Below the pieces are notes generated by a model that did not search any database, had not been told where the DNA came from, and saw only the letters and a list, made by a program, of their open reading frames with translations. From Octopus vulgaris (lineage: Eukaryota), in assembly GCA_951406725.2 (NCBI GenBank), contig OX597826.1:25234001-25298000 (forward strand): a stretch of 64,000 nt of DNA, in the 5' to 3' direction. A program made the position numbers and the translations under genes. Below are positions 2,245 through 57,502 of this stretch, piece after piece. Each line of letters starts with the position of its first letter. Position 1 is the stretch's first letter.

Positions 2245-3345
2245 AGTGTAGCTGCTAGAATAAGAATAGCCTGGGCAAAGGTCAGAGAGCTCCTACATCT
2301 GTTGGTGACAAAGAGCCTCTCACTCAGAGTAAAAGGTAGACTGTATGACGCATATGTACAAACATCCATGCTACATGGCAGTGAAACATGGGTCGTGACT
2401 GCTGAGGACATGTGTAAGCTTGCAAGGAATGAAGCTAGCATGCTTTGCTGGATGTGTAATGTCCGTGTGCATACACGACAGAGTGTAAGCGCCCTGAGAG
2501 AGAAGTTGGACCTAAGAAGCATCAGATGTGGTGTGCAAGAGAGACTGTGCTGGTATGGTCATGTGTTACTTATGGATGAAGACAGCTATGTGAAAAAGTG
2601 TCGTCTCACACACTAGCAGTAGAGGGAACCTGTGGAAGAGGTAGACTCAGGAAGACCTGGGATGAGGTGTTGAAGCATGACCTTCGAACTTTGGGCCTCA
2701 CTGAGGTGATGAGAAGTGACCAAGACCTTTGGAGATATGGTGTGCTTGAGGAGATCTGGCAAGCCAAGTGAGACTGTAACTGTGGCCTATGCCAATGCAG
2801 CATAACCAGCTCATTTAATAGTACCCTTCAATCATTGGGCAATAAACTGTGCTTGCAAAGACCTGTTCAGGCAAGTGAAGTCATTGTCATAGCCGATGAC
2901 AGTACCACCTGATGGGCACCCATTCCGGTAGCATGTAAGAAGTACCATTTGAGTATGGTCAATGCCAGTGCTGCCGGCACATAAAAAGCACCATTTGAGC
3001 GTGATAGTTGCCAGTACCTGCTTGACTGGCTCCTGTATCAGTGACATATAAAAAACACCATTCGAGCGTGATCATTGCCAGTGCCGGCTGACTGGTTCCC
3101 ATGCCAATGGAATGTAAAAAGCATGGCCGATACAATACTGTCTGACTGGCCCTCGTGCCGGTGACACATAAAAAGCACCCACTACACTCTCAGAGTGGTT
3201 GGCATTAGGAAGGGCATCCAGCTGTAGAAACATTGCCAGATCAAATTGGAGCCTGGTGCAGCCTCCTGGCTCACCAGCCCTCAGTCAAACTGTCCAACCC
3301 ATGCTAGCATGAAAAGCAGATGTTAAATAATGATGATGATGATAA
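2245..3345 (+). mobile_element. RTE-clade LINE, 5'-truncated (ORF C-terminus, 3' UTR with tandem repeats, (GAT)n tail)
   Basis: Translation KGRLYDAYVQTSMLHGSETW...RLCWYGHVLLMDEDSYVKKC...GRGRLRKTWDEVLKHDL with a frameshift, typical of the RTE C-terminus. Ends in tgatgatgatgat. Confidence 0.88.
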
Positions 3346-5576: not shown

Positions 5577-6049
5577 TACCAGTGACTAGCATGAATTTGA
5601 ACTCACAACCATAAGCCAATAAAGGAGACCTCTCCTGTAGCCATTTGCCTTACTAGAAATAGCAACCAAATCTCTTTCAAATAGTACTTCTGTCTAGCAA
5701 GGGTATGCATGTTTGTGGATTGCTCAGCCACTTGCCTGTTCTGTTGTCCAGATCAACAGGAACCCTTGTCATAGTAACCAACAGAGTGCTAGTTATTCTG
5801 TTGGTCTCTTTTGCTAAATGGTTAAGATACAAGGATGTAAATGTACCAACACCAGTTGCCAAAAGTCACGAAGTATAAAACTACAGTTGGTGTAATAGCT
5901 GAAGACACCAGATTATACCCACAACCACCACATAGATTTTGTGACTTTTGTTAAACATACAAACATACCTACACATATTTATATACACACATGCATACAT
6001 ATAGATATTTAAGTATATACATATATATGCATACATGCACACACATATA

Positions 6050-6425
6050 CTTTTACTCTTTCCTCTCTTTTACTTGTTTCAGTCATGTAACTGTGGCCAT
6101 GCTGGAGCACCGCCTTTAGTCGAGCAAATCGACCCCAGGTCTTATTCTTTGTAAGCCTAGTACTTATTCTATTGGTCTCTTTTGCTGAACCACTAAGTTA
6201 CGGGGACGTAAACACACCAGCATCGGTTGTCAAGCAATGTTGGGGGGACAAACATGTATAAGACGGGCTTCTTTCAGTTTCCGTCTACCAAATCCACTCA
6301 CAAGGCTTTGGTCAGCCCGAGGCTATAGTAGAAAGGCACTTGCCCAAGGTGCCACGCAATGGTACTGAACCCGGAACCATGTGGTTGGTATGCAAGCTAC
6401 TTACCACACGGCCACTCCTATGCCT
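6050..6425 (-). mobile_element. SINE family A (tRNA-derived, CORE-like; resembles octopus OR-type SINEs)
   Basis: Head with A/B boxes, CORE-like gcaccttgggcaagtg, tail ggcggtgctccagcatggcc...gactgaaacaagtaaaagag. Confidence 0.85.
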
Positions 6426-7068
6426 ATTTACACACATACATACATATATACATGCACTATGTCTAAGTAATCGGGTTATGAGCACCCTGTCCAAGGCTAG
6501 ATCTTCTTTGATCATAAGTTTGCTTCATCAGACCTAGCCTAGGGTTAAACAACATCATTATCCCATTCAGTAAATTGCTGTGTTGGTTGGGACTTTGTAG
6601 TATATTTTTTCATTAGTGTATGTGTGTTTGTGTTTAATTATATAATTTTGGCAATCAACAAACTTTTTACTTCAGGCAGGAATTAAATATTGAAAAAAAA
6701 AAGAAAGAAAACTCCAGAAAATACTAAAAAAGACTACAAAAACAACATCAACAATTCATACCAAAATGCCCCCCACTCCCGTTGCCACCACTACCACCAC
6801 TAGACAAAAGGTGACGACAATTCAAACGAAACAGAACACTGTGTAAAACAATACAAAACCACATACACATGTATTTTTGTTGTGTAAAATCAATCAATGC
6901 GTCTCATTTGCCAAACAATATAAAAATTGAGCTAAACTTGGCAAGGGCACTGCACTGCTATAAACCAGAGAGAAACTGATGCACCAAATGGGTTGCACTA
7001 GTATCCCTGTACAATTAATGTTACTATGTATGCATCTGTTTATATGTGAATGTATATGTGTGTATGTA

Positions 7069-8262: not shown

Positions 8263-8862
8263 CATGTGTGTGTGTGTGCATATATCTATGTATGTGTGTC
8301 TTTGTGTCTGTGTTTGTACCCCCATCACTGCTTGACAACCCACTGCATGGCACCTCGGGCAGGTGTCTTCTACTATAGCCTCGGGTCGACCAAAGCCTTG
8401 TGAGTGGATTTGGTAGACAGAAACTGAAAGAAGCCCATCGTATATATGTATATATATATATGTGTATGTGTGTGTGTATGTGTTTGTCCCCCAACATTGC
8501 TTGACAACCGATGCTGGTGTGTTTACGTCCCTGTAATTTAGCGGTCCAGCAAAGAGACCGATAGAATAAGTCCTGGGGTCGATTTGCTCGACTAAAGGTG
8601 GTGCTCCAGCATGGCCACAGTCAAATGACTGAAACAAGTAAAAGAGTAACTATTTTTTAATACAATTCTTAATAATATTTATTTCTAAAAACATAAAAGG
8701 ATTTTTTAAACATCAAATGGCTATGAGGGTCCAACCGAATACAGAGGGAATCAAAGGGGTCCGCAGATAAAACATGGCTGAGGAACACTGTTCTAGAGTT
8801 ACAAAGTGAAGACATGTGGCTCAGGATGTTACACTCATGATTGTAATATTGTGGTTTCAATA

Positions 8863-9290
8863 AGGCGGCGAGCTGGCAGAAATGTTAGCATGCCGGGCGA
8901 AATGCTTAGTGGTATTTCGTCTGCCATTACATTTTGAGTTCAAATTCCACTGAGGTTGACTTTGCTTTTCATCCTTTCGGGGTCGATAAATTAAGTACCA
9001 GTTACGCACTGGGATCAATGTAATCGACTTAATCCATTTGTCTGTCCTTGTTTGTCCCCTCTATGTTTAGCTCCTTGTGGACAATAAAGAAATAAGAAAT
9101 GCTGGGTGAAATGTTTAGTGGTATGTCATCTGTCTTTACATTCTGAGTTCAAATTCCACCAAGGTTGACTTTGCCTTTCATCCTTTTGGGGTCAATAAAT
9201 TAAGCACCAGTTGTTTTCTGGGGTCGATCTAATCAACTGGCCCCCTCCCCAAAAATTTCAGGCCTTGTGCCTAGAGTAGAAAAGAATATT
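8863..9290 (+). mobile_element. Tandem pair of SINE family B copies (B1 tail, then B2 tail)
   Basis: Two consecutive bodies with different 3' ends: ...ccttgtggacaataaagaaata and ...ggccttgtgcctagagtagaaaagaatatt. Confidence 0.8.
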
Positions 9291-17615: not shown

Positions 17616-17663
<48 letters not shown>

Positions 17664-17664
<1 letters not shown>

Positions 17665-20606
17665 TAGCATTAAAGACCCGTCGTTGCCGGGTCATAGTGC
17701 TAGTGCATGTATATATGTGTATATATATGTGTACATATTACATGTACACATAAAATGCAAAATACAAAGTTATATCTTGATATCGCTAGTGATAACAATA
17801 CTCAAAATATATAACAGACTGGAATTGTTTTATTATTAACCACAAGGGGCGAACATCGAGGGGACAATACAATCTGATGTGGGGTCAGATAGACGAATGG
17901 GGTTACACAAAGATGAGTTTTAAAAATTCAAAAAAATATAAATCTAAAAATTAAATGAAGAACAGACCGGAAGACATTACGGATAGAGTGGGAGCGGGTT
18001 TAGCTCGGACCCCACGAGCCCCGCTTCCCCACTGATACTTTGGTTTCGTCTAGTTTTACATTTATGTGGTATCATCCACTCGCAACTTTCGTGATACATC
18101 CTTCCATCGTTCTTCATACACTCTCTTAGTCAGGCATTTTCTCTCCAGCCCTGTCTTCCTTTTTAGGTGAAAGATGAAGTAATTCATCAATCCAGGGCCG
18201 GAGATGAACTTGCCTGACCGTAAACCTTTCATCCTAGTCTTCCAAATCACCTCTTTCGCATTTGCTACTACAACGAGAAAACAATTCTTACCTTCTTTCA
18301 CGAGGAAATCTGGTGGGTCAATTTTTGTAATAGACTCAGTCGACAGCTGTACTCTTCGTGTGCTTGACAACAGCTGTTCGGCATAAACCCACACCTGTGA
18401 CACGACCGAACAATGGACAATAGCGTGCGGGATGGTTTCCCTATCCCGCTCGCATCTTGGACATATCGGACTGTCTTGGCCACCGTTCCTTGCGAGTTTA
18501 TCCCGAACAGGTAGAGCTCCTCTGTAACATTGCCATGCCAGAGACTTCTGGAAGTTGTCCAGGGTCTTCAGCCCGAACGTATGTCAGAACAGACTGGCCA
18601 GCTGATTATCGTCGAGACCTAGGGCTTCCCCTAAGGTATCTTCACATTCCGCCTCTACCAACCCTCTATAGAAGAATGTGGTGGAACCCCCACCGCAGGC
18701 GTTGACTGAGCGACGGAATAGCAGGAGAGCCTTGCGACACTCCGTGTACCATGTGCCCAGTTTCGATCTACGATTCAGCCAGGTTTCCCATCCACCGAAA
18801 CTAGTGAACTTGGGAAACATCAGTTTTGCTAGCGGAGACCACACCTGTTCACCATCCATGTAGAGCCACAGATATCTTAACCTCAGCGCATGTCTGCGCA
18901 TCATCAGCCAAGGCATCCCTAGCCCACCCTTTAACGGTTGTTGATAGCAAGTAGAGCGTTTCACAAGTGGTTTCCCGCCCTGCCACAAGAAGTAGAAGAG
19001 CTGTCTTTCCAACTTGTTCAACCACGAATCAGGGCAAGGAACGACGGAAAGGCGGTAGGTGATAACCGATGCGATAAACACATTGGCTACTTCCGCCCTT
19101 CCTTTCAGGGATAGCCACTGCCAAGACCAGGTCTTGGCTACTGCAGCCAACCTGCTCGATACCTCGCCCCAGTTCTTCTCTATTTGGAGGTCTGGTCCGA
19201 ACCAAACCCCTAGCAACTTAATCGGACCCTCCGTCCAACATCCCACGACGCTGTCAGGAGGCATCGACTTGCCTCTCCTGGTGCCGAGTTGCAAGCCGAC
19301 TGACTTTTCACGATTAACCTTTGCTCCTGTCACCGTCTCGTAAACCTCTATGGCCTTGCCTACCCTCTGTAGGTGATCCATTTTGGTTACGATAATGGTG
19401 ATGTCATCCACGTAAGCTGACACCGATTTTCCACAACCTGGCTGTCTCGGGATGCCACTCAGTTTTCGCAGTAATGGCTCAAGAGCCACCACGTACAAAA
19501 GCGGGGAGAGCGGACACCCTTGACGAACCGAGCGCTTGATGTTGAACGACCTCGAAAAGAAGCCGTTCACCCGAACTGTGCCAGGGCAGACACCAGGTAG
19601 CGATGGTCGACCCTATCGAATGCTTTAGATTGGTCTAAATGGACCAGTGCCCCACCCTTGCCAGAATCACTATTAAACCCCTCTATAGTGTACCGCATAA
19701 GATGGAGATTATCCTGAATAGATCTGCCAGGAACGGCACATGTCTGTGCCTCCCCGATCAGACCATTCGCGACACGCGCCAATCTTTTCGATAACACTTT
19801 GGCCAAAATCTTCAACTCTGTGTTTAGCAGAGTGATGGGCCTGAAATTATCAATGCACTCCCCCTTGCTCGGGTCCTTTCTGACAAATGTCACTACTCCC
19901 CGGCGCACAGATCTGGGTATGAACCCGTTCTGCTGCCAGTTTGCATAGACCTCCGCCAGTAGGTGCCCGAACAAGTCTGGCATACTCTTATATAACTCAT
20001 AGGGTAGACCCTCCAAACCCGGCGCCTTGCCCGTGCCGCAGTCCGCCATCGTCTCAACCACCTCCCCAGGCGTGATTGGCCCTTCACAGCCCATATAACA
20101 GACTGGAATTGTTAGCTCTTCTTTTTTCTCTACATTGTATACTTTATAGACAATAATCTTTTCTTTAATTTAATTTTTTATTATCCATCTGGACTATTCC
20201 ATTTCTGCACGCTAATTTTATTTTTAACTTATTCCCATTCATATGAAACCACTTCTTCAAGTTCAAGTCATTGATACAATTTTATACCAATTGCTATTTT
20301 TACTTTTGTTATGTTATGATTATATTATACTTTAGTTTGATTTTAATTATTACTTACTACATATAATTCAATTGTTATTATTATTTTTATTGTTAAAGTG
20401 AAAGCATCTGACATAAAATAGAGAAATAGTTTTGTTTCACTTTAACACGTAATACTGAAATAGTGGAGAAGATATGATATTGCTATGGGCTCGCTCTAGG
20501 CAAGTAGGACATATGTAAAATTCGAATGAAATTGGTTGTGTAGTTCTCAAGTTTTAGGGAAACACAGACAGACAGACACACATTCTCAGTTTTATATATA
20601 CAAAGA
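17664..20606 (-). mobile_element. Non-autonomous Helitron, interrupted by a Tx1 LINE
   Basis: Minus strand: 5' A|TC at 20606 followed by (GTCT)n; 3' hairpin GACCCG-7nt-CGGGTC (17675-17693), then CTAG|T at 17664-17667. Both ends sit in (TA)n. Confidence 0.72.
17830..20092 (-). mobile_element. L1/Tx1-clade non-LTR retrotransposon, 5'-truncated (RT plus zf-RVT)
   Basis: RT motifs GKAPGLEG, NFRPITLLNTELKILAK, LDQSKAFDRVDH, VRQGCPLSPLLY, AYVDDIT, and the CPRC-x8-H-x4-C knuckle; ORF stop at 18062. Perfect 21-bp TSD atataacagactggaattgtt at 17809-17829 and 20093-20113. Confidence 0.95.
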
Positions 20607-20652
20607 TATATATATGTATGTATGTATGTATATATATATATACTCGTATATG

Positions 20653-20699
<47 letters not shown>

Positions 20700-20705
<6 letters not shown>

Positions 20706-21022
20706 TCATCATCATCATCGTTTAACGTTCGTTTTCCGCGCTTGCACGGGTTGGATGGTTCAGCCGGGGTCTGGGAAGCCAGGGGCTGCACCAGGCTCCA
20801 GTCTGATCTGGCAGTGTTTCTACAGCTGGATACCCTTCCTAACGCCAACCACTCCGTGTGTGTAGTGGGTGCTTTTTACGTGCCACCTGCACAGGTGCCA
20901 GGGGGGGTCTGGCATCGGCCACGATCGGTTGGTGCTTTTAACGTGCCACCGGCACGGAAGCCAGCCAAGGCGGTGCTGGCATCGGCCACGTTCGGATGGT
21001 GCTTTTTATGTGCCACCGGCAC
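20700..21022 (-). mobile_element. Short RTE-tail element (3' UTR-only copy or RTE-dependent SINE)
   Basis: Homologous to the 2930-3345 RTE 3' UTR including the (GAT)n tail. Similar copies at 14270-14492, 30043-30355, 36100-36312 and 49020-49403. Confidence 0.8.
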
Positions 21023-21771
21023 AGATGTATGTATACATATATATATGTATGTATGCATGTATGTAAATGAATATGTGTGTGTGTGTGTGTGCATATGTGT
21101 CTATGCATGTGTATAAACTATGCAACATAGACACACACACACACCTAATACTCGATATGTGCATGAGGACAGCATATCAATTACTAAGTTGACAGGTTTA
21201 TCAGGGGACATCACATCCCAAAGTGCTCATTACTGAAATGACTCAGGTAGCATTAGATCCGGCTGAGTTAATGCGATTCCCCTCCCACACACACAACTCC
21301 AAACTGAACAGATGTGCGGAATTTCCATGTTGACAATTTTGGCTTTGGATTATGTAGAATCTTTATTGTTTCTTTCTTCTTTATTTTCTTTTTTTTTTGC
21401 ATTTTTGTTTTGATCACAGCACCACTCGTGCATGAAGAAACATTTTTTGTTTTGAAGTATTCATAGATTTTGAGATGTTGGTAATCGCTATATGCACTAA
21501 CAGAATTCAAATTTAGAAAGCAGTTAATGGCAACAAGTTGTTCTGGATGATTAGGTCTCTGCTATGATGAGGTCAGCCATAGTGAATATAACTCTTTCCT
21601 CCTTTATCGCTTATCTGTTACAGTCATTAGACTGTGGCTATGCTGGAGTACTAACTTGTAGAATCTTAGTCAAATAAATCAACCCCAGTATGTAACTTTT
21701 TTAAAACCTGGTATTTATTCTATCGAATTCTTTTGCTGAAGCACAAATACAGCCAGACACACACATGTATA

Positions 21772-23368: not shown

Positions 23369-24591
23369 ACACACATGATGAGCTTCTTACAGTTTCTTAT
23401 TTCTTTATTGCACACAAGGGGCTAAACATAGAGGGGACAAACAAGGACAGACAAAGGGATTAAGTTGATTACATCGACCCCAGTGCGTAACTGGTACTTA
23501 ATTTATCGACCCTAAAAGGATGAAAGGCAAAGTCAACCTTGGCGGAATTTGAACTCAGAACATAACGGCAGACGAAATCCCGCTAAGCATCTTGCCCAGT
23601 GCGCCAACGCTTCTGCCAGCTCGCCACCTCTACAGTTCTTACAGTTTCTACCTACCAAATTCACCCGCAAAGGTTTGATCGGCCTGAGGCTATAAAAGAT
23701 TCTTACTCAAGGTGCCATGCAATGGGACTGAACCTTTATTTATGTAGTTGGGAAGCATACTTCTTACCACACAGCCACATCTGTGTCTATACAACACACC
23801 CATGCCTTCTGTTGTTGTTGTTGTTAATATTGTTGTTATTTATACTTTATTACTGGAATTTGTAATCCCTCACTGACTCTAATCATTTTCCAATTCGTTT
23901 GACTCAGCCAACCAGTATCCTTTAAGCTTAGAAACGGATATGGCTGAAGCTTGCTAGAGAGCAAATAAACCAACACCTCTCTCCCTCTCTTTCTACACAT
24001 CCAAGTATGTGTGTGTGGGGGGAGGGTATGTATAAATTGTTGTTTATTACTTGTATAATAATGAGGTAGGACACATAAAATTATCGAATTTTCTCTCTTT
24101 CTCTTTCAACACAAGAGATAGAGGAACAGCAGGAGATATATATAAAGATATATAGAGAGAGGAACAGAATATACAGATATATATAGAGAGATGATAAGAA
24201 TATGCATGTAAATGTTGTAGAAATGTATGAGTGTGTATAGGTGTGTGTGTGTATGGATGCATGTATGTATTCTTGCTAGATTGTTTTATATATAGTTATG
24301 TATATAGATATATACATGCATGTATAGATATATAGATATGTGTGAGTGTATACATATGTATTGTTTCATTTGCTTTACACACACACACACACATTAATAT
24401 CGAAGAATGAGAACAAGTGATCAAGATCACACTGATGGATAAATATCATTTGTTGCTAACAAATTATCCAAGATGGAGATGAGTACCAATGTCCCATGAG
24501 GTAGGCTTGATAACTGCTGAGAATTTTTGGCAAGAAACCCTTGGTAAATTTCTTAACCAACAAATAACAAATACAGTATATATATATATAA

Positions 24592-26519: not shown

Positions 26520-27164
26520 GAGCACTCAGAGAGCACAAACCTCTGCAAAGGCAACATCAACATCATCTCAATGATTAGCCGGAGATGATTTTTAAAATGA
26601 GAATATCTGAAATAAACTCGAATGCTCTCACAAATGAGAATTCTAAAAATGAACCGGACCACTCTCAAAAATTAGGTTAAAAAAACAAAAAAAAAAGGAA
26701 AAATAAGCCAGAATCCTTGTTTGGTACCAGATTGATCCAAAAATCTAATCAGTTTGTGCCAATCATGAGGCCAAACATCCCTGAAAGTTTCATCCGAATC
26801 CATCCAGTGGTTCTTGAGATATCTTGTCCAGGGACAAACAAATAAACACGACTGAAAACAATACATATTTCTTTATTACCCACAAGGGGCTACTTACAGA
26901 TATATATTTCTTTACTACCCACAAGGGGCTAAACATAGAGGGGACAAACAAGGTCAGACAAAGGGATTGAGTCGGTTACATCGACCCCAGTGCGAAACTG
27001 GTACTTAATTTATCGACCCTGAAAGGATGAAAGGCAAAGTCGACCTCAGCGGAATTTGAACTCGGATCGTAACGACAGACGAAATACGGCTACGCATTTT
27101 GCCCAGCGTGCTAACGTTTCTGCCAGCTGGCCACCTTCAACTGAAAACAATACCTCTGCCTTCC
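26520..27164. mobile_element. Helentron/HINE-like non-autonomous element interrupted by SINE B
   Basis: Starts gagcactcagagagcacaaacctctgc and ends aaacaatacctctgccttc. SINE B (26865-27139, minus) is flanked by the 14-bp TSD actgaaaacaatac (26851-26864 and 27140-27153). Confidence 0.6.
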
Positions 27165-29945
27165 AGTTATTGGAAAATATCACCTTGCCTGCAAACAAGT
27201 GGCTATCTATTGCTTACTCTTCACTACTTTCACTTCAACATATATTTATCATCAACCACCATTCAAAGCCTTATCCTTCATTCATTATGTCCCCACCCTT
27301 CACTTTTTCTCCATCCCTAACTATTCCTCACCCACCCCATATACTCTTGCAGCCCCACTCACTCACACACACTATTCTTTTTTCTCCATTCACTACAGTT
27401 CCCCTTGAAAGTCCAGCCTGACACCTCAACACCACCATTTTATCTCTCTTTTAAGCTCAACTCTGGTTACTTCCATCTACACAATGAGTAACCATGTAGC
27501 TCCTCTGCAGCAAAAACCTAGTCTGCTCTGGTCCCTTCTTACATAGTTTAAACCCCCTCATCTCCTAGGACAAAGCCACTTCACTCTTTATTGTGGCCCT
27601 ACCCATTTGAAAAGGATCTTAGTTTTGCATGTGGCATAGCAACCTCATTAGGGCCGATGTCATGCAAAAACAAAAAAAAGCTCACAGTGCACACTGTACA
27701 GTGATTGGAGTTAGGAAGGGCACCCAGCTGTAGAAACCACACCAAAGATGACTTTGGATCACAATAGATTCTTTAGAACTGTCAGATTTTGTCAAATCAT
27801 CCAACCTATGCTAGCATGGAGGAAAATGGATAACAAATGCCGATGAGGATGATGATGGTGGTGATGATGATGATGATGATTGTGGTGATGATGACTGGTG
27901 ATGATGATGATTGTGGTGATGATGATGAGTTATATAAAAGCTTGCAATCGTGTTTACTAGTTCTTGCTACATGTGAATTTTGAGCATTTAAAAGCTAGCA
28001 AATTTTAACAAAGGAACCAACATGTGTGATAGATTAATCATTGGTTTCTTTGTAAATGGTCATCACATGATCCATGATTCAATTGTAAAGCAGTTGTGAG
28101 GATTTCTTAAACAACAGGAAAGTAAAAAGGCAAGATTAATTAATGGTCCATGCATGAAATTCATTTCCTCCTGTGTTTCCCAGTAAAACACTGCCAAAAG
28201 TTTCTGCCTCATAATTTTACAAACACACACACACACACACACACACAGAAGTGATGATTACTTAAAGTGGATGAAACTTGTGGAAGAAGGAGACCCAGGA
28301 AAAAAAGTATTGAAGGCCAATCTCAAGACCCTGACCCTTACAAAGAAGATGACATAGAAGCGAGGTATCTGGGGCTTTGCTGTACTCAAGAAAACCCATT
28401 CATCATAGCAGAATTGAAACTGGTGCTGGCGCCATGTTAAAAGCACCCAGAACACTGTGTTGTTGTTGTTGTTAGGAAGAGCATCAAGCTGTAGAAACCA
28501 TGTCAAAGCAGACAACTGGAGTCTGGGGAGGCATTACCAGCCCTTAAGAAACTGCCCAGCTCATGCCAATATGAAAAACATGTTAAATGATAATGATGAC
28601 ACACACACACACGCACACCATATATAAACATAGACATCATCACCATTTAATGTTCTCTGGCCATGCTGGCAACGGTTGAATGATTTGAGGGGGGGATGGG
28701 ATGACAGAAGACTGGGTTAAGCTCCATCTGCTTTGGCACAGTTTCTCTAGCTGGATGCTCTTCATACAAATACATACATACATTTCTGCTTTTTTTTTCA
28801 TTCTTTCTCCATTTTCCCCCCTCCTTTCTGTCGAAGAGCTTACACTTGAAACATCAAAGACATATTCATTCTTCCCAAGTGTCAAACTAATACTTCTGCT
28901 TATTCCCTCACCTGTCTTCATCTTTTGTTTTCTGTAAATTTGAACCAACACACACACACACACATGTATATGTGTTGTGATTGCTTCATTTTGCTGTCTT
29001 GGTGAAATCATGCAGCACCCACACCACCACACACAAACACATGTGCATGTGCATATATAACCATTTCTGGAAAAAGCTTAATGTCAATGACACAAAAACC
29101 TATTGAATGTAATACCGTCAAAATTTGTCACGTTGCTTATCTTATACAATCAAATCAATATCATAAAAAAAAAGAAGAAAAACCCATCACGAGAGAAAAC
29201 ACCAGAAAGACAAATAACTAGCAAGTAAAACTATCTTACCCTGGGTAGATTTCTGACTGGATACACATCTTTTATCTGTTGCTCGTTCCAGACATTTGAC
29301 TGCAGCCATGCTGGGGCACTGCCTTGAAACTTTTGTTGAATGTATTAACCTCAGCACTAATTATTTTTTAAAGCCTGCTTACTTACTGTATCAGTCACTT
29401 TTGCCAAACTGATAGGTTATGGTGACATAAACACACCAACACCAGTTGTCAAGTCGTGATGGGGGATAAACACAGACACAAAGACATGCACACACACACA
29501 CACACACACACATGATGGGCTTCTTCCAGTTTTTAATTTCTTTATTCCTCTCAAGGCGCTACACACAGAGGGGACAAACAAAGACAGGCAAACGAAGTAA
29601 GTCGATTATATTCGACCCCAGTGCATAACTGGTACTTAATTTATCAACCCCGAAAGGATGAAAGGCAAAGTCAACCTCGGCGGAATTTGAACTCAGAACG
29701 TAGCAGCCAATGAAATACCACTTAGCATTTCATCCGGCATGCTAACGTTTCTGTCAGCTAGCCACCTTTCAGTTTCTGTCTACTAAATCCACTCACAAGG
29801 CTATAGGAGAAGACACTTGCCCAAGGTGCCACACAGTGGGACTGTACCCTGAACCATTTGGTTGGTAAGCAAGCTTCTTACCACACAGTCATGCCTGCAT
29901 CTTATCTCTGTGTGTATGTGGTGTGTATATATATATATGTCTATA

Positions 29946-34901: not shown

Positions 34902-35318
34902 AAGACGGCGAGCTGGCAGAAACGTTAGCACGCCGGGCGAAATGCGTAGCTGTATTTTGTCTGCCGTTACGTTCCGAGTTCAAATTCCGCTGAGGTCGAC
35001 TTTGCCTTTCATCCTTTCGGGCTCGATAAATTAAGTACCAGCTACGCACTGGGGTCGATATAATCGACTTAATCCGTCTGTCTGTCCTTGTTTGTCTCAT
35101 CTGTGTTTACCCCTTGTGGGTAGTAAAGAAATAGGTATTTCGTCTGCCGCTATGTTCTGAGTTCAAATTCCGCCGAGGTCGACTTTGCCTTTCATCCTTT
35201 CAGGGTTGTTTAAATAAATACCAGTCACGCACTGGGGTCAATATAATCGACTTAATCCATTCGTCTGTCCTTGTTTGTCACCTCTGTGTGTAACCCCTTG
35301 TAGGCAGTAAAGAAATAA
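34902..35318 (+). mobile_element. SINE family B with tandemly duplicated body and B1 tail
   Basis: A full copy followed directly by a 5'-truncated second copy starting ggtatttcgtctgccgc. Confidence 0.85.
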
Positions 35319-41759: not shown

Positions 41760-43197
41760 CAACAATAGTAATAGTAATAATAGTAAGAACAAGAATAGCA
41801 ATGGTGGTAGTAGTAGTAGAAATTGATGATGATGATGATGATGAACACAATAAGAAGCAACATAAGAGAAATATGGAAAACAATGGTAACAATAAGAATA
41901 AAAGATAGAAAAAGGGTATTTCTTTTTTTAAAAAAAAAGCATATTAATGGGAAAAAAGAAAGAGCCAAAACGAGCGAAAGTAACAATGAAAATATATCAA
42001 TGGAAAGAACAACAACAACAATAACAAGAAGAAGAACAACAACAACAGAATCTGCACTTATAAATAGAACGAAAGAAAAGAATCCTAAGTCAACAACAAC
42101 AACAACGACAATGATAACAAACCGCATTACGATGAAAACAAAGTTAATAATATTAGCAACAACATCAACAATGGCAAAATTAATAATTACCTTAAACAAT
42201 AGTGGGGTTGGGATGGGGTGGGGAAGAAATATATAAAAAGGAACCAATTCTGGGTGGGGGTGGGGAGGAGTTGAGACAAGAAAATAATAGAAATGATAAC
42301 AACAATAACAACAACAGTCACACTAGCAACAACAACAATGCTTTCAAATTTTGGCACAAGGCCAGCAAGTTTGGGGTAGAGGCTAAGTTGATTATATTGA
42401 TTCCCAGTGTTCAACTGGTACTTATTTTATCGACCCTAAAAGGATGAAAGGTGGAGGTGCAATGGCCCAGTGGTTAGGGCAGCAGACTCGCGGTCGAAGG
42501 ATCATGGTTTTGATTCCCAAGCCGGGCGCTGTGTGTGTTTATTGAGCAAAAACACCTAAAGCTCCACGAGGCTCGGGCAGGGGGTGGTGACAACCCCTGT
42601 TGTACTCTTTCGCCCAAACTTTCTCTCATTCTTTCTTCCTGTTTCTCGAGTAACACTGTGATGGACTGGCGTCCCGTCCAGCTGGGGGGAACATATACAC
42701 CATAGAAACCGGGCCCATGAGCCTATCTAGACTTGAAAAGGGCGAAGAAAAGAAAAAGAAAGGATGAAAGACAAAGTGGCCTTGGTGGAATTTGAACTCA
42801 GAATGTTACTGATGGATGAAATGCTGCTAAGCATTTTGTCTTGTGTGCTAATGAGTCTAGCAGCTCACCACCTTAGCAACAACAATACCGATTTCAAATT
42901 TTGGCACAAGGCCAGCAATTTGGGGGGAGGAGGTAAGTTGATTACATTGACCCCAGTGCTCAACTGGTACTTATTTTACTGACCCCGAAAGGATGAAAGG
43001 TAAAGTCAACCTTGGTGGGATTTGAACTCAGAACATGAAGGTGGACAAAATGCTGCAAAGCATTTTGCCTGGCGTGCTAGCGATCATGCCAGCTCCCTGC
43101 CTTTACAACAACAACAATAATAATGATGATGACTACTCCCATCAATTCTGATGTATGAGTGTTTAAATAAAAATAAAAAATAATAACAAACACTTAC

Positions 43198-46225: not shown

Positions 46226-49200
46226 ATATATATATATATGAAAGTGTGTGGCCTAGTGATAAGGTAGTGTGCACTCACAATCGCTAGATTGTGGGTTCAA
46301 TTCCCTGATTGGGTGTTGTGTCGTATTCTTGAGCAAATCAATTTGTTCCACATTGCTCCCGTTCCCTTTCAATCAGTTGTAAAATAAATGTCACACGACT
46401 GTCATATTCATATCTGGTTATGGGGGAAATATTTCCTTACTTGGATACAAGTGAAGGTAGGTGACAGGAAAGGCATCTGTCTGTAGAAAATCTGCCTCAT
46501 CAAATTCCATCTGAGCCATGCAAGCATGGAAGCCTTGTGAGTGGATTTGGTAGACAGAAACTGAAAGAATCCCATCTTATATATATATATGTGTGTATAT
46601 ATATTTATGTGTGTCTGAACTCACCCCTCAATCGCTTGACAACTAATGTTGGTGTGTTTATGTCCCCATAACTAAGCAGTTTGGCAAAAGAGGCTGATAG
46701 AATAAGTACTAGGCTTACAAAGTGTAAGTCCTGGGGTTGTTTCTTCGACTAAAACCCTTTAAGGTGGTGCTCCAGCATGGCACAGTCAAATGACTGAAAC
46801 GTGTAAAAGAATAAAACAATGATGATGATAACGATGGTTTGGTTAGAACAAGGCAGCGAGCTGGCAGAAACATTGGCAAGCCGGGCAAAATGCTTAGTGG
46901 TATTTCGTCTGCCATTACATTCTGAGTTCAAATTCCGCCGAGGTTGACTTTGCCTTTCATCCTTTCAGGGTTGATAAATTAAGTACCAGTTACACACTGG
47001 AGTCAATGTAATCGACTTAATCCCTTTGTCCTTGTTTGTCCCCTCTATGTTTAGCCCCTTGTGGACAATAAAGAAATAAGAATAAGTGTTTTACAGAAAA
47101 GAAACTATTATGGAATTTTTCATTCCTGAAATTTCAGTTTAATATATGTGTAATACAATGATTTAGTTTGATGTTTCAATTTCGAGACCAATATTCTGAT
47201 ACCAGCAGATTTTGAATATCTCAAATGATGAGATGATCTCTGTCAGAATGCTTTCGGTTGTAGGACGGTTGATCAGGGTTGAACATCAACAAAGACCGAT
47301 CAATACTGACAGTGCTGTATTATTATTCAACCAGAGGTTTCATTTGATCAGGCTTTAGTGAAATGACATAAAAAAAAAATACCACTTTCTTGGCCTTTTC
47401 CACACTCCACCTCCTCCACAACACCACTAATGCCATCAATGCCAACGCTACTGCTGTCAACGATACCTATTTCTTTACTACCCACAAGGGGCTAAACACA
47501 GAGGGGACAAACATGGACAAATGGATTAAATCGATTACATCGACCCCAGTGCATAACTGGTACTTAATTTATCGACCCTGAAAGGATGAAAGGCAAAGTC
47601 GACCTCAACGGAATTTGAACTCAGAATGTAACGGCAGATGAAATACGGCTACGCATTTCGCCCGGCATGCTAACATTTCTGCCAGCTCGCCGCCCTTTGA
47701 CTGCTGTCAATGACACCACCGGCAGAAGGAACCCCCTAGCCAATGTGGAAGTGTCTATGATGTTTGATTTGCTAGAAATAGCAACCAGGTCACTGTCGAT
47801 ATCACACCGCATCACTGTCTTAAAAAGAGAGAACTCATTAGCAAATGTAGACCTAGATATCTTTTGAAAATTATGAGATGGTCAGAGTTGGAATGTCTTC
47901 AGTCACAAGACTGCTCGACAATCAGAGTTGAACGTAAACAACAGCAAGCAACACCAAATGCACAATGTCATTGTTCAGTCAACTATATACAATAGGTTTC
48001 ATTCTATCGGGTTTTACGGGAGCAACATAACAAATCTACCGACCGCACCACTTATTCTCAACCACCCTCACCAGATTATTCTCAATTGCTATTCGAGAAT
48101 TATAATGCATAACAAATAATAAACAAAACAAAATCAGAACAATGCTTTTGTAATCAATTTGTAATTATTACAGGTGACCAGTCAAACTGGTTTCAACAGA
48201 TGTTAATCGATAACTGATGAGGGAAACAGGGATAATGGAATCCCTGATGATAAAAGATGAGAGGAAACAATAGATTCCCTGATGATGAAAGATAAGAGGC
48301 GACAATGGAGCCCCTGATGATGATGGAGGAGGGCATGAAATTTGGTCAAACCTATTATTATTATTATTATTATTAATAATACAGTTATTGGAATTATTTT
48401 GGCTTCTACTTTGAAAAGAAACAGTGCAATGCAACATAGTTACTATAACAGCTGTAATTTTTTTTTTAATGTAGATAATGTTATTATAATGTTTTTCTTT
48501 GTGGCATATATTTGGCATAGCTAACTGGCCATCAAAGTAAGGAGGTACAGGTGTAGATGATAGAAGGAGGGGATCAAACACAATTGACTATACTAGTCGT
48601 TAAAGCTTCACACCCAGGTAAGATATGATAATAAAAGTAATAACAACATCAATAATAGTGATGATGATGATGATAATTATGGTGGTGTTGGTGATGATGA
48701 CTTCTAAATTTGGCACAAAGCTGCAAATTTTGTTGGTAAAGGCAACAAGTATAAAGGTGTAACTGATTTTTCATTGACTGGCTCCTCTCCTTCATCCATT
48801 GCTGCTCACTTTGCAAGTACTTCGATTGGTGCATATTTTAATTAACTGCAGTAATATGAAGACACAAAATAACCCCAACCCTCCCACTCCACCCATTTGC
48901 GTCAGCGATCTCAACTTGAGGCCAAAATGTCAAGAAACATTATATACCACAAAATATGTTATCTTACATCACAACCTTTTCCTGTAATTATCTTAGCAGC
49001 GATGACGACAACAACAACATCATCATCATCATTGTTTAACGTCCACTTTCCATACTAGCATGGGTTGGGCAATTTGACTGAGAACTGGCGAACCAGATGG
49101 CTGCACCAGGCTCCAATCTGATCTGGCAGAGTTTCTACAGCTGGATGTCCTTCCTAACGCCAACCACTCCAAGAGTGTAGTGGGTGCTTTTATGTGCCAC

Positions 49201-49461: not shown

Positions 49462-49856
49462 CCTTTCTACTAAAGGCACAAAGCTTGAAATGTGGGGGTA
49501 AGGTGGGGGTAAAGGATAAAAGGCGAAGCTGACCTCAGTGGAATTTGAACTCAGAACATAGTGGAAGATGAAATACCGCTAAGCATTTTGCCCGGTTTTC
49601 GGATGATTAACCCAGCTTGCTACCTTAATAATAATAATGGTTTCAAATTTTGGTACAAGGCCAGCAAGGGGGTAAATTGATCACATTGACTCCAGTGTTC
49701 AACTGGTACTTATTTTATTCACTCCGAAAGGATCAAAGGCAAAGTTGACCTCAGCAGAATTTGAACTCAGAATATAAAGAGGGACAAAATGCTGCTAAGC
49801 ATTTTGTACAGTGTGCTAACAACTCTGCCAGCTCACTGGCTTTAATATTAATGATG

Positions 49857-49906
<50 letters not shown>

Positions 49907-50661
49907 TATAATTATAATAATATAACTATCATAAGTTGTGGCAATAAGATGAGGTAGTGAAAATGCTACATTGGAAACTATGCGAAAAGTGGAATCTGGA
50001 GAAAGGCAAGATGTGGTATGAGCCCTCAGAGAGTGGCAGATTTGAAGACATGCAAAATCCTGTGGGGTTTTCCAATCCAAACAGATCAAGTGCTAGAGCA
50101 TAAAAAGCTGCACCTAGTGGTGGTAGACAAGGTGAACTACATGTGCTATGTAATTGATGTGGTGTGCCCCTTTGACCCATGAATAGTCAAGAAAGAAGGC
50201 AGAAAAATAGACATATACAATCTTTTTAAGTATGAAACAGCCTGGCTATGAAAAATGAAGAAGGTGAAGATCAGAATAGAGTGCCCAGTAGATCTGTTAC
50301 AATTGATTTGCTTCTTTGGTATGGCCAGAATATTCTGGAAAGTATTAGTTGAAAAGAACAGATAACATGGTACGGTAGGCTGCAGGTAACCAGCTTATTA
50401 TGCATGCAAAAGGAGTTAAAAGGAATAGTAATAACAATAACCCTTTCTACTAAAGGCACAAGGCCTGAAATTTTTTGGGGGGGGGGGCAAGTTGATTACA
50501 TTGACCCCAGTGCATAACTGGTACTTATTTCATTGACCCTGAAAAGATGAAAGGCAAAGTTGACCTTGGCAGAATTTGAACTCAGAATGTAGTGATAGAT
50601 GAAATACTGCAAAGCATTTCATTCAGTGTGCTAACGATTCTGCCAGTTTGCCACCTTGACG

Positions 50662-50729
<68 letters not shown>

Positions 50730-50971
50730 TATTATTATTATTATTATTATTATTATTTCTACTCTAGGCATAAGGCCTTGAAAATTTTGTGGGGAAGGGA
50801 GTCTAGTTGATAACATCGTCCCCAGTGCATAATTGGTACTTATTTCATCGACCCGGAAAGCATGAAAGACAAAGTTGACTTTGGCAGAATTTGAACTCAG
50901 AACGAAGTGGCAGATGAAATACTGCTAAGCATTTCACCCAGCATGCTAACGATTCTGCCAGCTCACAACCC

Positions 50972-51487: not shown

Positions 51488-53616
51488 CTGAAAGACAGAA
51501 ACAATGGAATAATTAAGAAATGATTTGGGATATTTTAATCTCTCAAAGTCATATGTATGTTTATGGAAGGGTAGAAATGGTCAGCTGGATACCCACTACC
51601 CTCAGGGTAGCTAGCAGAACTGGTAGAGCATCAGACAAAATGTTTAGTGGTATTTCGCCCAGCTCTTTATGCCCTGAGTTCTACTGTCCCTGTGGTTGAC
51701 TTAACCATTCATCCTTTGGGGGAAGGGGAGACTAAGATTAAATAGCAGTCAAGTACTGGAACTGACGAAATAAACTTGCCCCACCCCTCAAAATTGTTAA
51801 CCTTGAACCCTGCGATGAACTGACATCCCATTCAGGGTGAATATTGTGATCTCAAGTCACCTATAAGCCATGAAAAATGGGTAACGGGCCTTATGAGTCC
51901 TGGGATTAGAAGAAAAAAAAAATACCCAAAAACTACCTCCAGGTATTTGACTGGTACTTTACTAAACCTGTAAAAAGATGAAAAGTAACAAACTGGGTGG
52001 GATTTGAACATAAAACATGAAAGAAATAAGGCATGGCTGTGTGGTAAGAAGTTTGTTTCCCAAGCTCAGACCCATTGCATGGCACCTTGGCCAAGTGTCT
52101 TCTACTGCAGCCTTGGGCTGACCAAAGCTTTGTGATGGAAAGAAGCCAGTCGTATATATGTATGTGTGTGTATGTGTCTCTGTAACTTAGTAGTTCAGCA
52201 AAAGAGACCGATGGAGTAATTAACAGGTTAAAAAAAATAAGTATTGTTCAGCTAAAATTTTTCAAGGTGATGTTCCAGCGTGGCTGCAGTCTACTGACTG
52301 AAACAAGACAAAAGATAAAGGATAAATATTGGCAAAAGAAATTTCAGAGGAGGGGGAGGGTAAGTCGATGACATCAACCCCAGTGTTCAGCTGGTACTTA
52401 CTTTATTGACCCCAAAATGATGAAAAGCAAAGTCAACCCTGGCAGAATTTGAACTCAGAACGTAAAAAACAGATGAAATGTCACTAAGCATTCTGCCCAG
52501 CTCACTGCCTCATAGAAGATAAATATTCTTTTCTACTCTAGGCACAAGGCCCGAAATTTGGAGAGGGGGGTCAGTTGATTAGATCAATCCCAATAGGCAA
52601 CTGGTACTTAATATATCGAACCGCAAAAGGATGGAAGGCAAAGTCAACCTCGGCGGAATTTGAACTCAGAACGTCAAGACAGATGAAGTACCGCTATGCA
52701 TTTCTCCTGGCATGCTAATGATTCTGCCAGCTTGCTGCCTTATAGAAGATATTGTTGTGCATTTTTTTTTATTTCCCATCAATCCAGCAAGCCAATGGTG
52801 AAGACAAGCAGCCCACTGGTTTGGGTGTTTTACTCATAACCTTAAAGTTGTGGTTTTGACTGAAAGCCTATCTTATATGTGTGTTGAGTGTTTATGTCCC
52901 TGTAATGTAGTGGTTCAGCAAAAGAGACTGATGAAGTAAGTAGCAGCTTATGAAAAAAAGGGTACTGGGGTTGAACTGTTCAACTAAAATTCTTCAAGGT
53001 GGTATGTTGTGTTCTTGAGCAAAACTCCTAATTTCATGTTGCTCCACTCAGCTGCAAATGAGTTCCAACGATAGGTGGGAAGTAAACCCTGCAAAGGACT
53101 GGTATCCCACCTATTGGGTGTTGTAATCTTAGTTATATATACACCATGGAAACCAGGTTAAACTTTGGCCCAATGAATCAGGATCATGACAAATCTCAGT
53201 CGAAGTCAACTAACCAATAAAAAAAAAGAGAAGAAATCGAAACTGGGAAAGTGAGATGGATAGACAGATCGGTCATTGGAGAACTATTATAAAAACCACA
53301 AAAATATCCAGAAAAAAAATCCTTTCAACTATAGGCACAAGGACTGAAATTTGGAGGGAGGGGGGCAGTTGATTAGATTGAATCCAGTATGCAACTGGTA
53401 CCTAATTTATCAACCCGAAAAGGATGAAAGGGAAAGTTGACCACGGCGGAATTTGAACTCAGAATGTAACAACGAGCGAAATACCGCTAAGTATTTTGTC
53501 CAGTGTGCTAACAATTCTGCCAGCTCACCACCTTTATAAAAAAGAAAAAATAATAATGTAAAATTAATACAAATAGCTTCTAAATATGAGTAAAACCAAA
53601 TAAAATGTTTTCTATC

Positions 53617-57128: not shown

Positions 57129-57502
57129 GATTTTAGTATATTAGTAAAGCTGGTTCTTCACTTAAATTATATTGTTATTCCTTCTTTGTTTCTCTCATTT
57201 TTACTATTTCCAAAATATTTATTTCTTTATTGCCCACAGGGGGGCTAAACAAGAAAGGGCAAACAAGGGCAGACAAAGGAATTAAGTTGATTGCATCAAC
57301 CCCAGTGCATAACTGGTACTTATTTAATTGACCTTGAAAGGATGAAAGGTAAAGTTGACCTCGTTGGAATTTGAACTCAGAACATAACAGCAGATGAAAC
57401 ACCGCTAAGCATTTTACCCAGCGTGCTGACGATTCTGCCAGTTTACCACCCTATATTCTAATGCTGGTGTTTAAATACTTGTATTTAAATAATATTCTAA
57501 TA

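Follow-up and report, generated by a model that had tools for sequence, protein, structure and literature searches.

A 3' tail shared between an abundant SINE and a radiation of L1-group LINEs in Octopus vulgaris

Results

We analyzed a 64,000-nucleotide stretch of the Octopus vulgaris genome (assembly GCA_951406725.2, contig OX597826.1, positions 25,234,001 to 25,298,000 of the forward strand), hereafter the window, whose positions are numbered from its first letter. On its minus strand lies a 2,263-bp LINE of the L1 group, likely of the Tx1 clade (17830–20092; family A), between 21-bp target site duplications (TSDs) at 17809–17829 on the 3' side and 20093–20113 on the 5' side. Its ORF2 remnant (18062–20092) comprises reverse transcriptase (RT) pieces (RVT_1, E = 1.8e-12 and 5.7e-14) and a C-terminal zf-RVT domain (E = 6.5e-11), and the element carries a frameshift, a stop codon and an internal deletion relative to an open copy. 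The spread of these remnants over three frames, together with the deletion, indicates that the window LINE is a dead, 5'-truncated copy. The 3' UTR occupies 17830–18061, and its terminal part (17830–17872) is a tail common to this LINE, the SINE B1, ORF1-only elements and sister LINE families. A terminal hairpin with a 4-bp stem and a 5-nt loop is predicted at 17838–17850, with a change in the 3' arm that is private to the window copy. The first-pass annotation of this DNA had quoted the 3' end of the LINE, its 21-bp TSDs and a 14-bp TSD for a SINE; all were located, the LINE end reading from 17872 to 17830 on the minus strand and the SINE duplications lying at 26851–26864 and 27140–27153.

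The window LINE interrupts a non-autonomous repeat on the same strand (17663–20607), which begins with TC, contains GTCT repeats, ends in a hairpin (17693–17675) and CTAG, and lies between A and T. We class this host as Helitron-like by features that we take to be those of such elements. Family A and ORF1-only elements stack head to tail at one base of the repeat, both in the window and at other loci (L034, L041, L042, L044, L047, L050, L052–L054, L059, L063). Two further abundant repeat families of the window (5975–6430, with many copies; 2965–3345; 20705–21024) lack the shared tail, with background-level scores against the LINE tails, and one of them is inserted in the Helitron-like hosts of L052.

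The SINE B1, a unit of ~233 nt, is represented in the window by nine near-full copies and one extra unit. Forward-strand copies are found at 408–628 (tail 586–623), 8862–9094 (followed by a B2-type 3' part, a 17-bp TSD enclosing both), 46850–47078 and 34902–35317, the last being a dimer with one TSD around it, in which a full copy runs at 35133/35134 into SINE position 50, where LINE family K also inserts. Those on the minus strand are at 23398–23629 (14-bp TSD), 26865–27137 (duplicated tail end, within the 14-bp TSD given above), 29536–29768, 47468–47694 (14-bp TSD) and 57220–57441 (an older copy). The SINE tails quoted by the first-pass annotation correspond to 586–623, about 9051–9093 and 35255–35317. 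Its description of the SINE as very abundant agrees with the genome-wide count of an exact 29-nt tail pattern, which occurs at least 83,868 times. The SINE head has A- and B-like boxes and complementary ends, recognized by eye only and with a box consensus that we presume to be the appropriate one; for a tRNA match of the head, ARAGORN reported no genes and Rfam no real match. TSDs of the SINE are mostly 10–19 bp and those of the LINEs mostly 14–25 bp, calls distant from element ends or within simple repeats being disregarded. Divergence of the SINE from its majority sequence ranges from 2.1 to 17.3% (median about 5.8%, n = 26, not chosen by similarity), overlapping that of the LINEs (family A 2.8%, K 4.8%, C 4–6%), whose values come from similarity-ranked samples and are biased towards young copies.

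A sister SINE, B2, has the head and body of B1 followed by a different tail, which forms a small hairpin with a loop similar to that of B1. Scores of the B2 tail against the LINE tails were at background, and no partner LINE was identified for B2 among them. B2 often adjoins ATT repeats in the window (42934–43103, 49655–49842, 50489–50964, 52361–53534). Swapped tail modules of this kind are described as usual among SINEs (PMC4824008, PMC5786205). Two peculiarities of SINE ends were also seen. On the minus strand, the B1 copy at 26865–27137 has a second, partial tail ahead of its TSD (26865–26904), likely the product of re-priming in reverse transcription. At window position 47468 and at L035, L136 and L160, the SINE stops after the initial letters of the head site and unrelated flank follows, which suggests read-through from masters that lie inside the head of another SINE.

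The tail is a property of family A and not of the window copy. In a search of the 2.8-Gb genome, 40 of 1,927 candidates were scored, these being 91–96% identical with the exception of the window copy, and the tail ends 30/30 family A loci (the window copy and 29 others). As that figure is biased by a query that included the tail, a second set of loci was chosen by the zf-RVT domain alone, 150 of 25,803 candidates being scored and only zf-RVT-bearing LINEs thereby sampled. The end motif was present in 65 of 70 such loci (a set in which two copies are present twice), with two more recognized by eye and three interrupted. The majority tails of family A and the SINE are identical at 39 of 46 nt (score 58; shuffled controls mean 18, maximum 38), a score that none of 2000 doublet shuffles reached. 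When the LINE end is aligned locally to the rest of the window, SINE B1 tails take the first nine places (scores 34–54.5; next match 33). Other copies of the LINE therefore do not end differently, and the similarity is significant, the two points on which the first-pass annotation had made its SINE–LINE match depend. The core of that match is borne out, whereas the extra upstream similarity it had included ('ccattcgtct') is weak: it consists of variant letters of the window LINE and of the SINE copy at 35255, and the majority sequences of family A and the SINE differ there.

Open ORF2 copies exist for families A, B, D, F, G and H. Most copies of family A have an ending that differs from that of the SINE, and one copy of subfamily A2, L167, has exactly the SINE's ending. 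Copies L036, L039 and L046 lie in or adjoin an element with an ORF that we take to be Penelope-like from its RT and GIY-YIG-type motifs, L039 and L046 having one site in common. At the 5' junctions of full-length elements (L038, L041, L050, L054, L057, L065–L068) there are target-like letters with recurrent differences from the 3' TSD, as if the RNA brings its own copy of the target.

Open copies of these LINEs encode ORF1 followed by an ORF2 of ~1,130 aa with endonuclease, RT and zf-RVT domains, an example being L056, whose ORF2 of 1134 aa (Exo_endo_phos, RVT_1, zf-RVT) has ORF1 upstream. The best solved relative of ORF2 is human L1 ORF2p (E = 5e-65 over residues 4–870), R2 proteins matching at E = 3e-25 or weaker. 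ORF1 has a visible CCHC-like motif, and its Pfam matches are below the cut-off (E about 0.06). Among homologs with a species label the closest is from Argonauta (64% in RT), and the nearest of those with a functional name carry automatic 'Transposon TX1' labels; searches with the endonuclease region found no clade-named relatives. In a quick RT tree of 57 rows, built with no curated Tx1 references and with family C having no row, the sampled genome families and the Argonauta protein form one clade (support 99), within which K, B and A form an RT clade of their own (support 100). That clade groups with two coral proteins automatically named 'Transposon TX1' (38–39% identity), at a support of only 80. 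With an APE-type ORF2, an ORF1 and human L1 ORF2p as closest solved relative, the LINE belongs to the L1 group, and membership of the Tx1 clade, as named in the first-pass annotation, is likely. Preference for a target sequence, which PMC4494074 describes for Tx1 elements, fits families A, K and H.

Comparison of 121 distinct 3' ends placed the LINEs in 16 families or subfamilies, and 17 when family K was added later, elements with no end motif (5 of the 70 domain-selected loci) having been dropped from the set. In family C, 12 of 30 loci were without the motif or had too little ORF2, and misplaced anchors at L152 and L179 were left out. Apart from A2, the families have ORF2 ends 51–74% identical to that of family A. 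The score of the SINE tail against the family tail was reached by none of 2000 shuffles in 12 of 17 families, and a hairpin of at least three Watson–Crick pairs ends within 3 nt of the end motif in 17/17 families (shuffles mean 7.2, maximum 13), although shuffle counts overstate independence as the families are related. Windows of the UTR upstream of the tail scored at background against the SINE tail (16–22.5). The two arms of the stems change in step, C-rich with G-rich, ACC with GGT and GATT with AATC. A three-helix model of a 33-sequence alignment had 82.4% of cells paired, versus 46–53% in slid controls, and 17 two-sided changes versus 6.2 in shuffles; the tally of pairs showing two-sided change fell short of significance (98/500), and slid controls likewise hold many two-sided cells. 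Single-sequence folds of six tails were no better than shuffles (z −1.28 to +1.02). Folding of the tails, which the first-pass annotation had proposed, is thus favorable to the hairpin as regards covariation and position but not as regards single-sequence folding energy.

Nearly all families end in AATAAA or a one-letter variant of it, and copies stop about 5 nt past this hexamer with no poly(A). Because of the AATAAA-like word, part of the conservation of the tail in the LINEs could reflect 3'-end processing. The tail was found in none of five distant relatives (35 metagenome loci, five of which reached the ORF2 end; 27–31% identity; scores 14.5–18.5), and it therefore looks lineage-limited. 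The tail has the appearance of a specific cis signal, as had been proposed, and would be recognized as such. Elsewhere in the radiation, family H elements lie inside ATT microsatellites at all three loci seen (L174, L188, L191), and four zf-RVT matches ~5.4 kb apart at G000:C2:73046133-73062761 represent a tandem array of near-full LINEs.

The ORF1-only units stacked beside family A copies are 1.8–1.9 kb long. All six have no ORF2 match and an ORF1 that is 33–47% identical in part, and their DNA matches family A over the last 46–50 nt only (87–98%, 6/6), making that segment the sharpest natural mapping of the signal. ORF1-only-like elements also join at the SINE head base used by family K, and three elements at this site (L251, L276, L301) have no ORF2 match and their own tail variant.

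Targets differ between the families. Of 34 family A copies, 14 are at one base of the Helitron-like repeat and seven at a second site (21/34 in all). A reading of these copies as cargo of the Helitron-like repeat was rejected, since their 5' ends differ and each has its own TSDs. The second site (3' flanks of L065 and L067) is within a ~260-bp element that is itself at the Helitron-like site, an instance of nested targeting. A genome search for the SINE tail followed by the main family A target gave no matches, with a pattern that needed an intact SINE end and would miss junctions trimmed by microhomology, and no family A copy (0/34) is at the SINE head site. Family K, searched with its 3' end and no flank, has 27 of 30 copies at one base of the SINE head, or 23 of 26 when the four first found by their flank are set aside; two of the three misses are the SINE head site with small deletions. 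That base lies between the A- and B-like boxes. SINE, K and ORF1-only insertions all join there, and each kind of element keeps a final letter of its own. Among 126 SINE ends from pools assembled without regard to the site, 37 are followed by SINE position 50, about 70% being elsewhere and many of those followed by AT repeats. Downstream of the SINE end in an enriched pool of 126 junctions, the half is B1 in 92, B2 in 21 and other sequence in 13; the hosts of K are B1 (14), B2 (8) and other (5) among 27. Near-identical units were present in only 3 of 92 B1 dimers, indicating that most are not simple self-duplications.

Family K has the same ending as the SINE and the same hairpin type, and no open ORF2 was found among 20 long loci of this family. 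For the 5' part of its tail, the SINE has its closest match in family C (C1–C3 score 59–70.5, with up to 32 nt identical; K scores 50). No LINE with the whole SINE tail was present among those sampled, pattern searches giving SINE-type ends only; none of the 30 loci inspected from one full-SINE-tail search had ORF2. The donor of the tail was probably an older or unsampled member of the radiation.

Discussion

Tail sharing of a major SINE with an animal radiation of L1-group LINEs is, in our assessment, real and well supported. The first-pass annotation had tied the SINE by its tail to a Tx1-like LINE, and this holds for the radiation as a whole but not for family A. The reading that we consider likely is that the B1 tail is the tail of an L1-group, probably Tx1, radiation whose ORF2 protein likely reads the predicted stem-loop and copies the SINE in trans, with the K lineage as its probable main driver and the window LINE as a dead copy of a sister family. 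K is the better partner candidate because it sits at the very base that follows 37 of 126 SINE ends. We infer stringent recognition and trans-mobilization, which could operate as follows. ORF2 would bind the stem-loop of the tail RNA and nick the preferred site of its family, reverse transcription would start at the end of the tail, and SINE and ORF1-only RNAs would be copied by the same ORF2 in trans. The SINE may have acquired its tail when an older element of the radiation served as donor in a template switch, an origin suggested by B2 having the head and body of B1 with another tail. Insertion into a SINE head, joined by homology at the 5' end, would yield head-to-tail dimers such as that at 34902–35317.

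A wider version of this proposal is that the animal Tx1 radiation reads a two-part RNA stem-loop as stringent LINEs do, and that K both copies the SINE through its tail and lands in the SINE head. The two would then form a closed loop in which the passenger multiplies safe landing pads for its driver, while sister families bearing this tail shifted to Helitron-like repeats and microsatellites. We regard this wider version as plausible but tentative.

The dimers at the head site could instead have arisen by recombination or slippage, so that the target sharing of K would be only apparent and the driver would be family C or an unsampled family. We consider this unlikely, despite several observations in its favor: family C matches the SINE tail over the longest identical stretch and is comparably spread in divergence (4–6%), units within a dimer are closer to one another (7.6%) than random pairs are (9.8%) and 3/92 dimers are near-identical, the window dimer moved as one unit, and a SINE with a separate upstream head fragment was not found. 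Recombination or slippage does not readily account for 21 of 126 downstream halves being B2, or for a junction that coincides to the base with insertions of K and of ORF1-only elements, each of which has a final letter of its own. The hairpin of family C is of a different type.

Family A itself, which the first-pass annotation had proposed as the SINE's partner, is quite an improbable driver. Although its tail is as good a match to the SINE as those of most families (39/46), its A2 copy L167 ends exactly as the SINE does and open ORF2 copies exist, its main target is found after an intact SINE tail in no case against 83,868 exact SINE tails, most of its endings are unlike that of the SINE, and none of its 34 copies is at the SINE head site. 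The absence of the SINE from the main A target and the differing endings make it a poor candidate, and the tail is in any case common to many sister families. In the comparison of TSDs that had also been proposed, the lengths of SINE and LINE duplications overlap, but no SINE with an intact end is at that main site.

It is very unlikely that the tail is simply a signal for Pol II 3'-end processing (AATAAA preceded by TGTA-like words) that was once captured by the SINE and is copied in a relaxed manner by any LINE. Copies stop about 5 nt past the hexamer with no poly(A), such a signal would be needless for a SINE with Pol III-type boxes, the stems covary, and the SINE and family K use one target base; the near-universal AATAAA-like ends and the weak single-sequence folding count in its favor. 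Chance, or capture of a SINE end by the window LINE copy alone, has a negligible probability and is ruled out by the family-wide tail (30/30 loci; 65/70 domain-selected loci), whose match to the SINE exceeds that of shuffles.

Among known systems, the closest are L1-tailed SINEs of plants and algae: a survey of 58 SINE/LINE pairs has three, from maize/sorghum and Chlamydomonas, with no Tx1 and no animal case in its accessible text (PMC3747384, PMC3472496). These are ZmSINE2 and ZmSINE3 with LINE1-1_ZM and SINEX-3_CR with L1-1_CR, which resemble the octopus pair in that an L1-clade LINE shares its last ~45–80 nt with a SINE, and in having a conserved terminal stem-loop with compensatory changes, read there as stringent recognition (PMC3747384, PMC3472496). 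The octopus case differs from them in being from an animal, in a target-preferring Tx1-like radiation with no poly(A) or poly(T) end, and in its at least 83,868 copies. In crocodilians, SINEU is tied to Tx1-Mar by a target inside another repeat, with tandem insertions as in octopus (PMC4494074). Its evidence, as given in the available text, is a shared target, age and 5' heads (from U1/U2, with a Mariner target) and not a shared 3' tail, whereas in octopus the tail is shared and one LINE family targets the SINE itself. Tx1L inserted in Tx1D of Xenopus and Kibi/Koshi in microsatellites (PMC4494074) are comparable to family A in a non-autonomous DNA-transposon-like repeat and to family H in ATT repeats, but the host in octopus is Helitron-like and the available text describes no SINE partner for them.

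The mechanism is modeled on zebrafish ZfL2-1/ZfL2-2 and eel UnaL2, in which ORF2 binds the 3' stem-loop, the stem generally and the loop specifically (PMC4176376). Those elements are of the L2 clade and the binding was shown by assay, whereas in octopus it is deduced from sequence. HAL1-type LINEs (PMC5786205) resemble the ORF1-only units in having an ORF1-like gene, no ORF2 and an L1-group context, whereas the octopus units have only the terminal 46–50 nt in common with family A and are stacked at its target. The tRNA-derived CORE-SINEs OR1 and OR2 of octopus (PMC4758252, PMC4824008) may be B1 and B2, which have one body, different tails and a head that looks tRNA-like by eye; no partner LINE is named in the accessible descriptions of OR1 and OR2. 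CR1 and L2 partners are given for SINEs of other molluscs (PMC4758252), recently active L1-Tx1 families are listed in an octopus but are not paired with SINEs in the available text (PMC13282606), and Tx1 is not mentioned in the accessible part of PMC12988792. We found no report of an octopus Tx1–SINE tail pair in the literature outside Repbase, Dfam, SINEBase, subscription papers and supplements. Within the literature found, SINEs with L1-type tails were known from plants and algae, and their occurrence with an animal radiation would be new.

Conclusions

The available text of PMC3747384 and PMC3472496 does not decide whether L1 was ancestrally specific for a tail sequence or required no more than poly(A). 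An ancestor with stringent recognition would gain support from an animal radiation of the L1 group whose tail hairpin covaries, together with a SINE present in at least 83,868 copies and ORF1-only passengers that have no more than the last 46–50 nt in common with the LINE. In this radiation, the recognition of RNA, which is shared, would be separable from the choice of target, which is specific to each family, and the tails of the families would represent natural variants for tail-swap assays. The finding would in addition supply a candidate driver for a major SINE of the octopus.
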